This document shows positions 24,418 to 30,951 of a stretch of DNA of 64,000 bases, in pieces. The position numbers and the translations under genes were made by a program. The notes under the pieces were generated by a model. That model was given only the letters and a program-made list of their open reading frames with translations. It had not been told where the DNA came from and did not search any database. Positions within the stretch are counted from its first letter, which is position 1; each line of letters begins with the position of its first letter. The stretch lies in the sequence record SRR22947727_2831, one strand, 5' to 3'.

Positions 24418-26247
24418 TCATTGTTGCAGTTGCTCGAGAAGCGCCTCCGCGCTCTGCGCGGGAAGCTGACACACACCGCGGTGACAGACATACGCAGTGG
24501 CGATTGACCCGTCAGTTCTTCCCCGAAGAATCTCCACACCCGCCTCGAGCATCTGCTGAGCTTGCTCTCCGGTGACGGAGAGAACCAGGGTCCCGGGAGT
24601 CCGGTGACGCCGGGCGATCTCGATCATGTCGGTGGGGCCATCGGCGACGACAATGATCTCCCGCTCCTCGCGGGCGAGGGATGCCAGCACCTGAAGAATG
24701 CCACCCGCCCCTAGAGACGTCAGCATCGCCTGGGACACGTGGGGAGCGAGAAGGCCCCGCGCTCGCTCGATAAGGCCGTAGTCACCACGCAGAGTTGACG
24801 CCAGCACGAGGGCCTGCGAGAAAAGTGAAATACCAGAGGGTGAGGCGCCTTCTTGGATATCGGGGCGCGGAGTAAATCCCTTCTCACGCATCACCTCGTC
24901 CCGTCCCACGGTGAGCTCTTCCCCCGCAATGGACTCGACTAGACGGAAGGCCTCCGCTACGAAGCGAGCCTCCCCCAAAGCCATGCCTAGCTCGAGAAGT
25001 CCGAGGCTGAACGCTCCGTAATCTTCGAGAGTTGCTGGCGCGGCGCCGGGGATGCCCTTCCTCGAGAGTCGAATGAGTGTTCCGTCGTCCCGGACGTGAT
25101 GAGCCAGCAACCAGGTGGCGACCTGGGCACCCAGTTTTCCTGGGTCGCCTGGAACCCCCGCGAGGTGTGCCTCGGCGAGCCCCCGAAGGGCTAGACCATT
25201 CCACCCGGTGATGACTTTGTCATCCACCTTTGGTGGGGTGAGTCCCTCTCGGCCCACAGCATCGAGAAGGTAGTAACCACCCTCACTGGGGAGACTTTCG
25301 ATTATGCTCTCGCTGTCTTGGGCAGAGCCAAACCCGCCCTCAACGAGCAGAGTTGAGTGCAGGAACGACACAATGCCTGCGGCGGCGTCCAGGTCACCCT
25401 GCCTCGAATACAGAGACAACAAACCGGCATTGTCATACAGCATTCGCTCATAGTGAGGCTCGCTAAAGTCCCTCATCGTGGAGTAGCGAAAAAACCCGCC
25501 CTCGACCGCATCCCGCAGGTCGGAGCCTGCATAGGTTTCTAACGTCCGGGCCACCAGCTGCGTTGCAGGCTCACTCCCCGCTAACCCTTCTCCCTGCAGA
25601 AACGACAGCGCTGGTGATACCGGGAACTTGGGCGCGCCCCCAAAACCCCCGAATTCGATGTCCTCCTGGGCGATAAGAGCATCCACGATGACCGACAGTT
25701 GCTCTGTGGAAGGGAAAACCTGATCCCTCGAGTCCTTCCCGATGGCCTCGGCGGCGTCGGCGAGTGCGCCGACGAGTGCTCGGGAGCTCTCGAGAACGTC
25801 CTCTCGCTTTTCCGCCCACGCAGTGGTGACTGCCTCCACCACCTGGGTCAGGGAGGGCTGACCGCCCCGGGGCTCAGGCGGGAGATAGGTCTGGGCATAA
25901 AACGCAGCACCCTCGGGTGTGGTGAACACGGTGAGTGGCCAGCCCAAGTGGTCGGTGAACGCTTGCGCCTGAGCCATATACAGCGCATCCACCTCCGGAT
26001 GTTCTTCTCGATCCACTTTGATGGCGACCAGTTTCTGGTTCAGAAGCTCGGCCATCGCCGGGTCATCGAAGCTCTCCCTCGACATCACGTGACACCAGTG
26101 GCAGGTGGAATAGCCAATGGAAATCATCACGGGGCAGTCGCGCTTCGCGGCTTCCGCGAAAGCGTCAGGGCTCCAGGGAAACCAGTCCACGCTCTGATGA
26201 GCGTGAGAGAGGAGGTAGGGACTCAGGGCGCCATCAAGGCGACTCAC
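24418..26247 (-). CDS. YyaL/SPATA20-like thioredoxin-domain protein
   Basis: [62 protein letters not shown]. Confidence 0.9.
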
Positions 26248-26252
26248 ACCGA

Positions 26253-27095
26253 TTACCAGTTGCCATCCATGGGGTGTGTTCCCACCCGACGATCGGCATC
26301 CATGGCGGCGATCGCCGTCATCTCGTCCCCGCTCAGCTCAAAATCAAAGACCGAGAGGTTTTCGATCATGCGCTCCTTGCGCACCGTCTTCGGGAACACA
26401 ACGACTCCTTCTTGCAGGTGCCAGCGGAGCACAATCTGCTGAATGCTCTTGCCGTGTGCCTCCGCGATCTCCTGAAGACCAGGAAGCTCGGCGAGGTCAT
26501 ACTTTCCTTGCCCCAAGGGACCCCACGCTTCGGTGATGATCCCCAGTGGTTCCTGGAACGCCCGGAGCTTTCTCTGTTGGAACGCTGGGTGGAGCTCGAC
26601 CTGGTTGATGGCCGGAACAATGCTTCCCTCCTCCAGGACGCGCTCGAGGTGCTCGGGTTCAAAGTTAGAAACACCGATGGCTTTTGCGAGACCCTGGTGG
26701 TGAAGCTCCTCGAGAGCCAACCACGTCTCGACATACTCGTCGCGCAGCGGGGCTGGCCAGTGGATCAAATACAGGTCCACATACTCAAGGCCCAGAAGCT
26801 CAAGGCTGAGGTTGAGCGCCTGGGGCGTGGCCTGGGTCCCCTGGTCTGAGTTCCAGAGCTTGGTCGTGACGAACAGTTCGTCTCGGGCGATACCGCTTTT
26901 TGCGATCGCGCGACCCACCGCTGCCTCGTTGCGATAAATCATCGCTGTGTCGATGTGGCGGTAGCCGACCTCGAGAGCATCGAGGACGATCTGTTCACAC
27001 ACATCGTCGTCAACTTTGAACACACCGAGTCCCAATTGGGGAATCTGGTCGCCGTTGTTGAGAGTCAGGGAGAGCTGGCCATCGGGGGTCTTCAT
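26253..27095 (-). CDS. Aldo/keto reductase (2,5-DKG reductase-like)
   Basis: [39 protein letters not shown]. Confidence 0.93.
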
Positions 27096-27198: not shown

Positions 27199-28182
27199 CT
27201 ACCGTGACGTTGTTGCGTTGACCTCGTACGAGGTGTTGGTGGACTCGAAGAAGTTCACCAACTGCAGGGTGTCATTGGCGGTAGCCATCCACTTGGCGGG
27301 GTTCGAGACGTTGTATTCGGTCTCGAAGCCGAGCTCCTCAAGGCGACGGTCAGCCAGGTACTTCACGTACTGGTTGATGTAATTCGCGTTGAGTCCGAGG
27401 ATGCCGTTCGGGAGCAGGTCGTGGTTGTAGGCCTCTTCCATTTCCACTGCGTCGAGGATCATCTGACGAATCTCTGCTGCGAACTCGGGAGTCTGCAGGT
27501 CAGGGTTCTCCTCCAGCACGGTGAGGATCAGGTTGATACCGAACTTCAGGTGCAGGCTCTCGTCGCGCACAATCCAGTCCACCAACGAACCAAAGTTACG
27601 CAGCAGGTTGCGCTGACGGAAGCTCAGAGCAACCATGAAGCCGGAGTAGAACCAGATGCCCTCGAGGATGACGTTGTAGGCAACCAGGTTGCGCACGAAG
27701 TCTTGCTTACCCTCGGTGGTGCTGATGTCGATGGTGTCCTCGGTCATGCGACGGATGAACTTCACTTCGAAGTCTTCCTTGCGTGCCATCGAGGGAACAT
27801 CGACGTGAGAGGCGTAGGCCTGCTCGCGGTCGATCGGGAAGGTTTCGAGAACATACTCGAAGCTCATGCAGTGGTTGGCTTCTTCCCACATCTGCTTGGC
27901 GAGGTAGAGGTGTGCTTCTGGTGCGTTGATGTAGGGGTACACACCAAAGGCCAGAGCTTTGTTCACCAGCAGCTCGCTGGGGTTGAAGTAGCTCATCAAG
28001 AAGGTGATGGCGTGACGCTCTTCGTCCGTCATCTTCTTGAAGTCAGCGATGTCTTCACCCAACTGAATTTCGTTGGGGAACCAGGTGTTAGCAACAGCCT
28101 GGTCGTAGAGGTCCATTGCCCACTTGTATTTCACAGGCTTAAGCAGCAGACCTTCTTGTACTCCTTGTCCAAGGATTCCCAT
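27199..28182 (-). CDS. nrdB: Ribonucleotide reductase beta subunit, class Ic-like (Mn/Fe R2c)
   Basis: TWFPNEI; ligands E70, E101, H104, E174, E208, H211; Phe108 at the radical-Tyr position; C-terminal NFFE...SY. Confidence 0.95.
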   Translation of the reverse strand: MGILGQGVQEGLLLKPVKYKWAMDLYDQAVANTWFPNEIQLGEDIADFKKMTDEERHAITFLMSYFNPSELLVNKALAFGVYPYINAPEAHLYLAKQMWEEANHCMSFEYVLETFPIDREQAYASHVDVPSMARKEDFEVKFIRRMTEDTIDISTTEGKQDFVRNLVAYNVILEGIWFYSGFMVALSFRQRNLLRNFGSLVDWIVRDESLHLKFGINLILTVLEENPDLQTPEFAAEIRQMILDAVEMEEAYNHDLLPNGILGLNANYINQYVKYLADRRLEELGFETEYNVSNPAKWMATANDTLQLVNFFESTNTSYEVNATTSR

Positions 28183-28233
28183 TGTTCTTCCTATCTCTAG
28201 ATCGTTGTTTGTGTGTGTGTGTAAAAGTCGGAG

Positions 28234-28317
28234 CTACTGGCAGCTATCGCACTGCAGAAGGTCCATGGGGTCTGTAGGGACGGCGTAGCCGTCGATGGTC
28301 GTGGAATCAAAGGTCAT
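28234..28317 (-). CDS. 27-aa acidic CxxC peptide, candidate detached NrdA C-terminal redox tail
   Basis: ATG ACC TTT ... CAG TGC GAT AGC TGC CAG TAG = MTFDSTTIDGYAVPTDPMDLLQCDSCQ; SD-like AAGGCGGGTGAG 8 nt upstream; 5 nt after the nrdA stop. Confidence 0.8.
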   Translation of the reverse strand: MTFDSTTIDGYAVPTDPMDLLQCDSCQ

Positions 28318-28322
28318 GGTGA

Positions 28323-30797
28323 TTACTCACCCGCCTTCGGTGCTCCGCCAAAACCGAAGCCCTTTTTGGGGGCACCGGATGCAGCGGCTACAGGCTCAGC
28401 CGAGGCCGGTGCTGCTGCACCAAAGCCCTTCTTCGGCGCTCCTGAACCACCCGAGCTGTTGATTTGCTCAGACTTGTTGACCTTCACCGTCGACTGCTCG
28501 GCGGTGTGGCGAGGCTTCATGTGCAGGTAGTACGTGGTCTTCACGCCACGCTTCCATGCAGCGGAGTAGATCGACATCAAGTCGTCCATGTCTCTGGTCT
28601 CCAGGTACATGTTGCGGCTAATGGCCTGGTCGATCCACTTCTGTGCCCTGGCTGCCACCTCAAGGAAGGCAAACGGCGAGAGCTGGAAGCTGGTCTTGAA
28701 GGTGTCCTTCAAGCTCTGAGGAATCGAGGGGATGTCCTGGATGTCACCCTGGCTACGCAGGATGTCCTCACGAGTGGACTCCCACAGACCGTGCTCACGC
28801 AGTGCGTTCACGAGGTTGCGGTTGACCTCGAGGAACTTACCGGAGCTGGTCGAGCGGCTGAAGATCTGGGAGAACTGAGGGTCAAGACCCGGAGTTGTTC
28901 CCGCAACCAAACCGATCGATGCAGTCGGCGCGATGGCCATCAGGGTGGCGTTGCGCATTCCGCCCTTGACCTTCTCGCGCAGAGCGTCCCAGTCCAGACG
29001 TGTCGTGCGGTTCACCTCGACGGGAACCCCACGGTCTGCCTCGGTGAGATCGACGGTGTCCAGAGGCACGATGCCCTGCGACCAACGTGAGCCCTCGAAG
29101 TTGTTGTAGGAGCCACGCTCGCGAGCGAGGTTGGCGGATTCATCGATGGCGGCGTAGGAGACGTGCTCCATGATTTCGTCGATGAGGTCATAGGCCTCTT
29201 CGCTCTCGTAGCTGTATCCAAAGCGCTCGATGACATCGGTAAAGCCCATGACTCCGAGTCCTACGGCACGGTTCTGCTCGTTGGAGTAGTCGGCTTCCTT
29301 CACGCTGGAGCGCGTGATGTCGATCAGGTTATCCAGCTGACGAACTGCCACGCGGGCACTCTCGTCGATCTTCGCCCAGTCCATCTTTCCGTCCAGAACG
29401 TGCTGGGACAGGTTGATGGAGGCGAGGTTACACACGGAGACGTTGTCGACATCCTGTGGCAAGCAGATCTCGGTGCAGAGGTTCGAGAGGTGGATCGTGC
29501 CGGTGTTGTTGTTGATGGCACGGTTGTTGATGGTGTCCTTCCAGGTCAGCCACGGGTGGCTGGTGGCCTGGAGGGAGATCAGGATGGCCTTGAACTGCTC
29601 GCGGGCACCGATTTTCTTGAACATGTTCAGCTTGCCGGCTTCTGCCATCTCGGCGTACTCGGCGTAGCGCTTGGAGAAGGCAGCGCCGTAGAGCTCGTTC
29701 AGGTCAGCAACCTCGAGTGGATCAAAGAGGTACCAGGGCTCGTCGTTCTCGACGCGCTTCATGAACTCATCCGAGATCCACACAGCGGTGTTGGCGGTAC
29801 GAGTGCGGCGGTAGGGGTCACCGGAGTTCTGACGCAGGTCGAGGAACTCGGGGAAGTCAAGGTGCCAGTTCTCCATGTAGAAGCAGAGCGCACCGAACTT
29901 CTTGCCACCGCGAGACACCGCGCGCAGCACGGAGTCGATGGTGTGCATGAAGGGGATGGGGCCAGTCGACGTGGTGTTGTTGGAGCGAATCGGGGATCCC
30001 TGGGCGCGGAGCTTGGTCACGGCCAGGCCGATTCCACCGGTTCCCTTGGTGAGCCACATGACATCGCGGGTCGTCTTCGCGATGTGCTCAATGTCGTCCT
30101 GCATTTCCATCACAAAGCAGTTGGCGAGCTGGGGGTAGCTGGTTCCACCGTTGACAAGAGTGGAGCCGGCGGCGAGGTACTCGAGCTTCGACATCTTCTC
30201 GTAGAACTTGAGCGCGTGCTCGGTGGGGTTTTCCTCGTTGAGGGAGAGACCCATGGCGATACGCATCCAGAAGTACTGGGGAACCTCGAGGGGGTCACCG
30301 TTGCGGCCCTTGATGCCGTAGCGGTTGTTCAGGGTCACAACACCGATGTACTTCAGCAGTTCATCGCGGGTGGGCTCCAGGGCGGCTGCGAGAGCGTCAA
30401 AGTCGAACATCTGAGTGAGGCGCTCATCCAGCAGGCCCTCCTCGACGCCGCGACGGACGTTCTCTTCGAAGTGCTGGACGTGGAGCTGCTTGAGCTCTTC
30501 CGGGGATTCGTAGTCACCGAGAACACGCTTGTAAATGGTCTTCACGAGCAGGCGAGAGGCCAAGACGTCAAATGCAGGGTCATCCTTGACGTTCTGCAGT
30601 GCGACCTGGATAACAGCCTCGTCGAGCTGCTGGGTGGTGATGCCATCGAACAGCGTCAGTTCGAGCTCACTCGCGATCTGGGTCACCCAGGTAATCGAGT
30701 CGTCCAGCCCCTTTGCTGCGTCCTCGATGGCCAGGTTGATCTTGTTCGCGTCGTAGGCTTCCCGATCGCCATTGCGCTTCACCACGGTGATGTTCAC
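28323..30797 (-). CDS. nrdA: Ribonucleotide reductase alpha subunit with ATP cone, lacking the C-terminal Cys pair
   Basis: VVKRNG ATP cone; QLANCF, SNLCTEI, VSVCNLAS catalytic Cys; IAPTAS; KTTYYL; GAGGAG RBS before GTG 30797. Confidence 0.97.
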   Translation of the reverse strand: MNITVVKRNGDREAYDANKINLAIEDAAKGLDDSITWVTQIASELELTLFDGITTQQLDEAVIQVALQNVKDDPAFDVLASRLLVKTIYKRVLGDYESPEELKQLHVQHFEENVRRGVEEGLLDERLTQMFDFDALAAALEPTRDELLKYIGVVTLNNRYGIKGRNGDPLEVPQYFWMRIAMGLSLNEENPTEHALKFYEKMSKLEYLAAGSTLVNGGTSYPQLANCFVMEMQDDIEHIAKTTRDVMWLTKGTGGIGLAVTKLRAQGSPIRSNNTTSTGPIPFMHTIDSVLRAVSRGGKKFGALCFYMENWHLDFPEFLDLRQNSGDPYRRTRTANTAVWISDEFMKRVENDEPWYLFDPLEVADLNELYGAAFSKRYAEYAEMAEAGKLNMFKKIGAREQFKAILISLQATSHPWLTWKDTINNRAINNNTGTIHLSNLCTEICLPQDVDNVSVCNLASINLSQHVLDGKMDWAKIDESARVAVRQLDNLIDITRSSVKEADYSNEQNRAVGLGVMGFTDVIERFGYSYESEEAYDLIDEIMEHVSYAAIDESANLARERGSYNNFEGSRWSQGIVPLDTVDLTEADRGVPVEVNRTTRLDWDALREKVKGGMRNATLMAIAPTASIGLVAGTTPGLDPQFSQIFSRSTSSGKFLEVNRNLVNALREHGLWESTREDILRSQGDIQDIPSIPQSLKDTFKTSFQLSPFAFLEVAARAQKWIDQAISRNMYLETRDMDDLMSIYSAAWKRGVKTTYYLHMKPRHTAEQSTVKVNKSEQINSSGGSGAPKKGFGAAAPASAEPVAAASGAPKKGFGFGGAPKAGE

Positions 30798-30903
30798 TGT
30801 TTTCTCCTCATTCTTTGGCCCAGGGACCACAAATCGCGTTCTTTTCTGTTGGTTTTCTATCCCCGGTGGTGCTCAGAGGGCACTTTTTCCTTCGACAGCT
30901 TGA

Positions 30904-30951
30904 CCACTATATATGGCACTTCTGACAATTCACATACCCCACATGTTGTGG
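30904..30951. promoter_or_regulatory. Tandem NrdR boxes
   Basis: CCACTATATATGGCAC (30904-30919) and ACCCCACATGTTGTGG (30936-30951) match acaCwAtATaTwGtgt and start 32 bp apart, upstream of nrdA. Confidence 0.85.

Follow-up and report, generated by a model that had tools for sequence, protein, structure and literature searches.

In class I ribonucleotide reductases (RNRs), the active-site cysteine pair is oxidised in each turnover and is reduced by a cysteine pair on alpha's flexible C-terminal tail, and the oxidised tail is then reduced by thioredoxin-type reductants, as outlined in passages of PMC11903788 and PMC9669993. The tail and the substrate compete for the same pocket, and the tail must leave to admit the substrate, according to the part of PMC11903788 that deals with this step. 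The nearest arrangement in print to the one reported here is the split class II enzyme of the Pseudomonas aeruginosa type, for which the relevant sections of PMC5704485 and PMC9669993 describe a Cys-bearing C-terminal part, serving terminal reduction, that is encoded by a separate adjoining gene; in this B12-dependent enzyme, NrdJb supplies NrdJa with a folded, cysteine-rich zinc-finger domain of 150-220 residues. In Aeromonas phage Aeh1, a class I alpha subunit is likewise made from more than one gene product (nrdA-a/mobE/nrdA-b), and the account in part of PMC3045599 attributes this to the interruption of nrdA itself by a mobile genetic element. The electron-delivery chain of a class I RNR is also rearranged in the glutaredoxin-NrdB fusion of Facklamia ignava, as given in a section of PMC6187632, where the reductant is fused onto the enzyme.

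We analysed a 64,000-nucleotide stretch of DNA from a marine actinobacterium (sequence record SRR22947727_2831; hereafter, the window) in which the redox tail of a class I RNR appears as a gene of its own, and we found the same split across the Microbacteriaceae. The locus resembled the described systems in part. Unlike NrdJb, the window peptide is an unstructured-looking 27-mer with only two cysteines, and it accompanies a class I (Ic-like) enzyme with an NrdB partner and an alpha subunit that scores as class I in NCBIfam, which sets it apart from the split class II enzymes. In contrast to Aeh1, the locus showed no mobile element, its catalytic barrel was intact and only the terminal tail was detached; relative to Facklamia ignava the rearrangement is opposite in direction, since the shuttle is cut off rather than a reductant added. 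A literature search revealed no separately encoded class I tail, although the supplements of RNR phylogenies may list tail-less class I sequences; a preliminary reading of the window from its letters and open frames (hereafter, the sequence-only reading) had known of no such description either. We regard the detached class I tail as an undescribed split in a known RNR system, with a well-supported mechanism that would act in trans.

The catalytic subunit encoded in the window displayed the features of a class I alpha subunit, namely three Pfam domains (ATP-cone PF03477, all-alpha PF00317 and barrel PF02867), the active-site Cys triad and the tyrosine pair. NCBIfam NF005101 matched NrdA with 1629.7 bits (cut-off 988) over profile positions 2-801 of 822; because the match stopped at 801, the end of the profile is missing in NrdA. 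The closest solved structure was 5im3 (E 1.1e-190). The full set of cysteines comprises residues 238 (QLANCF), 316, 452 (SNLCTEI), 456 and 467 (VSVCNL), and C238, C452, C467, N450, E454 and Y767/Y768 were invariant or nearly so among 50 homologues. The KTTYY motif lies at residues 764-768 and is followed by 67 residues, none of which is Cys, so that the C-terminal Cys pair is absent; the chain ends ...GGAPKAGE, then TAA. The longest ORF opens at a GTG at 30830, but a GTG at 30797, 11 codons downstream, is probably the true start because 120 close database homologues are mostly 818-824 aa rather than 835 aa long.

The peptide ORF follows nrdA on the same strand and precedes nrdB (Table 1). Five nucleotides (tcacc) separate the nrdA TAA from the peptide ATG at 28317, the ORF lies in frame -1 relative to nrdA, and an in-frame TGA is present 4 codons upstream of its ATG. 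Relatives carry GGGGGGTGAG or GGAGGTGA at the position of the SD-like sequence. The peptide has a net charge of -5 and ends in QCDSCQ; it thus bears the Cys pair (CxxC or Cx4C in the last few residues) that characterises class I alpha tails, although it is not a covalent part of alpha, as a stop and a new start intervene. Across 48 peptide sequences, P14, D16, P17, M18, D19, C23, C26 and Q27 were invariant, and a Y-x-VP-x-DPMD segment upstream of the Cys pair was conserved. Searches of Pfam and NCBIfam returned no family for the 27-aa peptide. The sequence-only reading had described an NrdA that keeps its catalytic cysteines and TTYY and has no Cys after VSVCNL, and a third, out-of-frame gene 5 nt past the TAA with an SD-like sequence 8 nt upstream and a TGA 4 codons before its start; QLANCF, SNLCTEI, VSVCNL and KTTYY were all located, C467 was the last Cys, and this layout was confirmed in every detail.

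Table 1. Features of the split RNR locus, with positions in the window.
Feature	Position	Strand	Basis or remark
nrdB, putative class Ic-like radical-generating subunit	27199-28182	minus	PF00268
Spacer between peptide gene and nrdB, 51 nt, with (AC)n run and nrdB SD	28183-28233	minus	
27-codon gene, probable detached redox tail (MTFDSTTIDGYAVPTDPMDLLQCDSCQ, then TAG)	28234-28317	minus	profile, conservation
nrdA, class I RNR catalytic subunit	28323-30830	minus	835 codons as longest ORF
SD-like AAGGCGGGTGAG	28326-28337	minus	within last nrdA codons; ends 8 nt before peptide ATG
Candidate operator box 2 (GCCATATATAGTGG; read ...CATATATAGTGG)	30904-30919 (limits approximate)	minus	about 32 bp from box 1
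Candidate operator box 1, palindrome CCACAACATGTGGGGT, NrdR-box-like	30936-30951	minus	upstream of nrdA

The NrdA tail has a net charge of +5 and contains two PKKGFG motifs. Two [KR][KR]GFG motifs are kept in the linker around residues 797-826 (window 28341-28430), and 1-4 GFG motifs were found in fused relatives (L017, L091-L117, P0140, P0141, P0223). A [KR][KR]GFG-type motif was present in only 5 of 116 diverse NrdA representatives, and it therefore marks this clade of NrdA.

The partner subunit is best described as class Ic-like; beta subunits of class Ic (Mn/Fe, no tyrosyl radical) have a Phe where class Ia has its radical Tyr and a Glu as the first metal ligand. The best solved relative of NrdB was 1syy (E 1.4e-74), which we take to be the Chlamydia class Ic protein; in the alignment, HCMSF fell on HTHTF, with Phe at what is presumably the radical-Tyr position, and NPSE fell on STAE, with Glu at the presumed first ligand. 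In the spacer upstream of nrdB, the (AC)n microsatellite (approximately 28210-28222), placed after the stop codon of the peptide gene and ahead of the nrdB SD, varies in length between species; a 2-nt insertion or deletion at 28209/28210 was seen in two runs of the assembly comparison. Between 26900 and 31300, Rfam gave no match at E ≤ 0.1, and promoter and terminator scans gave nothing above shuffled sequences, with no terminator between nrdA, the peptide gene and nrdB. Further downstream, an aldo/keto reductase gene (26253-27095) lies between nrdB and a gene for a 609-aa DUF255/Thioredox_DsbH thioredoxin-domain protein (24418-26247, minus strand), which is thus two genes downstream of nrdB.

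To describe the distribution of the split, we compared loci at the level of the genus and the family. Among 41 related genomes searched, 18 Pontimonas-genus loci hold the nrdA 3' end (L001-L016, L019 and L020; L018 and L021, with the nrdA 5' part only, were left out of the count), and all 18 were split, with an NrdA without a Cys pair followed by an ORF of 25-30 codons ending VP[TV]DPMD[LM]L[QR]C[DE]SCQ. A profile (A1) built from 15 peptides matched 147 of 301 family genomes and 53 of 101 genera at the threshold of E ≤ 0.1, nearly always in open frames of 27-120 aa; with a best E per genome of 1e-18 to 1e-11, the ORF occurs far above chance. When the C-terminal 149 residues of NrdA were used as the query, 70 of 151 genomes gave a match, and these represented 49 of 101 genera. 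All 70 genomes with a tail-less-type NrdA were also peptide-positive, and the presence or absence of NrdA and peptide agreed in 29 of the 30 genera itemised in both searches. We examined 30 family loci, comprising 3 from Pontimonas and 27 from other genera, and found a small ORF between nrdA and nrdB in 28 (25 by pattern and 3 by eye), nrdB directly after nrdA in two (L086, L090), and a fused tail in none. Apparent fusions in open frames of 831-1475 aa occurred at several profile hits; four were inspected, and all were split, the long frames around these hits having arisen by chance in GC-rich DNA. In one of the four (G102), the peptide ORF overlaps both neighbours, opening within GTGA and closing within TAATG.

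Outside the family, the peptide profile told a different part of the story. Over 401 genomes of the order, it matched 27 genomes beyond the Microbacteriaceae (E 2.7e-14 to 3.1e-4), most of them in one sister family, where 21 of 25 genomes were positive. Each of the 27 matches was an in-frame NrdA end (L091-L117), lying 72-243 aa after TTYY, which makes the peptide the counterpart of the final ~25 residues in a fused tail. The fused ends read ...DG[VT]ACP.DP......C[DE][SA]CQ, for example ...DGVACPVDPME[AR]LQCESCQ. As DGVACP of the fused tails aligns with DGYAVP of the peptides, the first of three cysteines is a Val in the peptides. The shortest fused tails were 72-77 aa, and the 67-aa NrdA tail plus the 27-aa peptide is about as long. 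These alignments show that the peptide is homologous to tails within NrdA. The sequence-only reading had named two patterns as support, a conserved small ORF wherever NrdA lacks its terminal cysteines and the same P-x-DP...QC-x-SCQ end fused to NrdA elsewhere; both were borne out, the former at 18/18 genus and 28/30 family loci and the latter at 27/27 loci in sister families.

The fused class I NrdA tail is thus the closest counterpart of the peptide. The nearest examples (L091-L117, P0140, P0141) share the terminal P-x-DP-x-[DE]-x-x-Q-C-[DE]-S-C-Q module with it, and the fused and split forms have the same NrdA core (74% identity for L017), a GFG-containing low-complexity linker and the presumed role of the tail in shuttling electrons from thioredoxin to the active-site disulfide. 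In contrast, the split form has a separate product of 25-36 aa, a Val in place of the first Cys and a second, independently transcribed copy. Additionally, we inspected an NrdA diversity set of 150 representatives of 50%-identity clusters, in 116 of which TTYY was recognisable; the tail ended with a Cys pair in 109, with one Cys in 1 and with no Cys in 6. Two of these six were fragments from Microbacteriaceae, and the other four (P0168, P0196, P0217 and P0232) lie elsewhere and end 19-39 residues after TTYY without a Cys. These four NrdA representatives may be further detached-tail systems, and further splits may thus be hidden outside the Microbacteriaceae.

At 26 loci (L033, L035, L037-L060), the peptide gene was free-standing, and neither an nrdA nor an nrdB motif lay within 1.5 kb of it. 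Its product, M..(D/E)....[VI]GGYAVPVDPMD[LM]LQC[DE]SCQ, was more conserved than that of the nrdA-adjacent copy, and at the loci inspected the translated flanking ORFs resembled MaoC-type dehydratase and murB genes. In 24 of 24 loci read by eye, a palindrome of the type CACTACATGTAGTG was located approximately 60-90 nt upstream of the ATG, followed about three helical turns on by TATATAGTG; all 24 also had a GGAGG-type SD and, downstream, a GC-rich hairpin with a T-containing tail. The nrdA gene of the window is preceded by a similar pair of boxes. A search of five whole genomes with the two-box pattern gave 8 hits, compared with 0 in the reversed control, and of these 8, five preceded nrdA and three preceded the free-standing peptide gene, with none elsewhere in those genomes. 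With an NrdR-box consensus and up to 3 mismatches, the window gave 13 hits against 14.7 expected, so that the scan as such was uninformative; among the 13, only the 2-mismatch hit at box 1 lies upstream of nrdA. NrdR (TIGR00244) was over the cut-off in all five genomes. Two palindromic boxes about three turns apart are the NrdR operator geometry presented in part of PMC9110341; the box pair, the spacing and the presence of NrdR all fit a candidate NrdR regulon.

An inverted repeat, GGAATGACA-N4-TGTCATTCC, lies between the operator boxes of the free-standing gene (L035, L040-L060), whereas the nrdA operator in the window does not have it; the repeat could serve as a site for a second regulator or form a hairpin in RNA. 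The second copy was also present in three Pontimonas genomes (G015, G016 and G018). The window holds only the nrdA-linked copy, and the nearest genome (G001) has one peptide copy only, at 91% completeness.

The peptide is encoded by a real gene, and the data also establish that it is homologous to fused tails, that it is conserved, that it co-occurs with a sole tail-less NrdA and that it has an operator in common with nrdA. We consider it likely that this gene specifies a detached CxxC tail that was split off NrdA and would re-reduce NrdA in trans, and we infer that the peptide is translated and takes part in thiol-disulfide exchange. This supports the sequence-only reading, which had proposed that the NrdA tail is detached and acts in trans as a diffusible or docked dithiol shuttle, encoded by a third gene between nrdA and nrdB. 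In such a scheme, gene fission would have split the tail off nrdA in the Microbacteriaceae lineage of a class Ic-like enzyme. An mRNA spanning nrdA, the peptide gene and nrdB would yield the peptide through translational coupling or re-initiation where nrdA stops, and in many genomes a monocistronic copy, controlled by a two-box (NrdR-type) operator like that of nrdA, would be a further source of it. Turnover would leave the NrdA active-site pair C238/C467 as a disulfide; the reduced peptide (C23/C26) would enter the active site in trans, reduce the disulfide and leave in the oxidised state, to be re-reduced by thioredoxin or a similar reductant. In yeast Rnr1, the tail of one monomer reportedly serves the neighbouring monomer (Zhang et al. 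2007). Among the points against a tail in trans, a free 27-mer loses the high local concentration given by a tether, and an additional Cys of the fused tails (...ACP...) is replaced by Val in the peptides.

The acidic peptide could be docked on NrdA, for instance on the basic KKGFG tail, or diffuse freely. A stably bound third subunit would perform the same redox function without being a diffusible shuttle, and the -5 and +5 charges of the peptide and the NrdA tail make docking by charge possible; however, since the fused relatives share this charge pattern, charge complementarity proves nothing about docking. The conserved Y-x-VP-x-DPMD segment ahead of the Cys pair would also suit a bound subunit. 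The sequence-only reading had suggested modelling alpha with the peptide, and a complex of NrdA 150-835 with the peptide was predicted alongside 3 controls. The complex scored 0.57, compared with 0.00 for the best of the 3 controls; at least 65% of contacts were common to the runs, and the pLDDT of the partner was at least 66. The score reached a mark that 51 of 78 solved complexes attained, as did 2 of 108 mismatched pairs; at scores of ≤ 0.60, those attaining it were only 5 of the 78 solved complexes and every one of the 4 passing mismatches (of 180), in a calibration set that contained no protein of fewer than 30 residues. The score thus lends weak support to complex formation, and no interface was returned by the prediction for NrdA 150-835 and the peptide. 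A stably bound peptide must moreover be reconciled with the need for the tail to vacate the active site for the substrate, as stated in the corresponding part of PMC11903788. On balance we find a bound third subunit possible but rather doubtful. We are evenly divided on the full form of the freely diffusing alternative, in which a 27-residue dithiol micro-protein, co-regulated via an NrdR-type operator, would be the obligatory carrier from thioredoxin to the sole aerobic RNR. If so, the tether long assumed to be necessary for class I turnover would be dispensable, and the re-reduction of RNR, which is often the slower half of its cycle, could be tunable by the dosage of the peptide from its second, independently transcribed gene. 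The tail micro-protein of the Microbacteriaceae is a natural experiment on whether the tether matters, how the tail finds the active site and whether re-reduction is regulated apart from catalysis.

The peptide might instead have a role other than the re-reduction of NrdA, as a Mn/Fe chaperone for NrdB, a regulator or inhibitor occupying the NrdA active site or a general small redox carrier. In favour of this, metals too are bound by CxxC motifs, the NrdB partner is class Ic-like, and the more conserved free-standing copy is unlinked to nrd genes. We nevertheless judge such a role improbable, as the peptide is homologous over ~25 residues to NrdA-fused tails, co-occurs strictly with a tail-less NrdA and has an operator that is otherwise found only at nrdA; in addition, the fused relatives pair with an nrdB-like gene too (L017).

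Over the 17 tail codons, 16 of 17 third positions were variable, compared with 7 of 17 first and 7 of 17 second positions. The pN/pS ratio over these codons was 0.07 for the free-standing copies (22 distinct sequences) and 0.36 for the copies with nrdA just upstream (62 distinct sequences, a set not confined to the family that may include some in-frame fused tails of sister families). This substitution pattern argues for purifying selection on the peptide. Each of five genomes (G001, G015, G018, G114 and G115) contained a single PF02867 catalytic subunit; with one match per genome, the tail-less NrdA is the only class I/II enzyme found in those five. The two genomes without an adjacent ORF (G114 and G115, both 100% complete) each possessed exactly one free-standing copy. 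The nrdA-adjacent copy is less constrained and is missing in 2 of 30 loci, and for this reason the window copy may be partly redundant with a free-standing one.

These data bear on the notion that the ORF merely couples translation to nrdB or acts as its leader, or that it is a relic in decay, with a functionless product. It would be favoured by the tight placement of the ORF between nrdA and nrdB, which extends to overlap with both neighbours in some genomes, and by the faster evolution of the copies with nrdA upstream and their absence from 2 of 30 loci, both of which also count against a trans-acting tail. However, eight residues, including both cysteines, are invariant in 48 sequences, pN/pS is below 1, the monocistronic paralogues have no downstream gene to couple, and the sole NrdA is without the Cys pair that class I enzymes need. 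A functionless product is therefore very improbable, and we retain the detached, trans-acting tail as the preferred reading.

Finally, we compared the junctions themselves. Of 49 distinct split junctions, 20 showed a 1-nt overlap between the peptide start and the nrdA stop and 8 showed a 4-nt overlap; the start lay 5 nt past the stop in another 8 and elsewhere in the remaining 13, with a spacer range of -4 to +40 nt. Relative to nrdA, the peptide was read in the -1 frame at 40 junctions, in the same frame at 6 and in the +1 frame at 3. Given three frames and varied spacers, no single frameshift or readthrough rule gives a fusion in all. In the window, DNA contigs from two studies span the junction without an indel, and the only indels were in the (AC)n spacer run. 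In two RNA libraries, nrdA and the peptide gene are joined on assembled contigs, which in one of the libraries reach nrdB as well; this attests to presence in RNA libraries only and tells nothing of translation, strand or a single transcript. A coverage gap in X14 at 28138-28239 carries no evidential weight. An ordinary NrdA with a fused tail, disguised by an assembly indel, a programmed frameshift or readthrough, is hardly credible: junctions that overlap by 1 or 4 nt, and the predominance of the -1 frame (40 of 49), superficially resemble frameshift sites, and the peptide lies in frame behind a stop codon in 6, but junctions in three frames with such spacers, the in-frame TGA upstream of the window ATG, two independent indel-free DNA assemblies, the free-standing copies with their own operator and terminator and the two genomes with no adjacent copy at all speak against it. 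The gene fission is real and family-wide. The sequence-only reading had already excluded readthrough, had left almost no room for a frameshift and had asked whether the reads would reveal an assembly error; its view of the junction held on each point.

The family-wide extent of the split, the operator-sharing second copy and the NCBI calls under a wrong name go beyond that reading. Most peptide copies have 25-30 codons, a length at which common gene callers tend to skip genes, so that a tail-less NrdA can look defective. Where copies are called, their naming is a matter for annotation. An exact-sequence look-up of 9 peptides found 8 in the database collection, and the exact sequence of the window peptide was absent. 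For five free-standing 27-mers (P0008, P0012, P0017, P0018 and P0019), NCBI and UniRef give the name "ribonucleotide-diphosphate reductase subunit beta", a propagated misannotation for tail peptides, and three other peptide clusters were entered as "hypothetical protein" or had no name. We also observed that a record titled Streptomyces sp. L7 (L175) and Leifsonia sp. P73 (L179) have identical free-standing peptides; the former record may be mislabelled.
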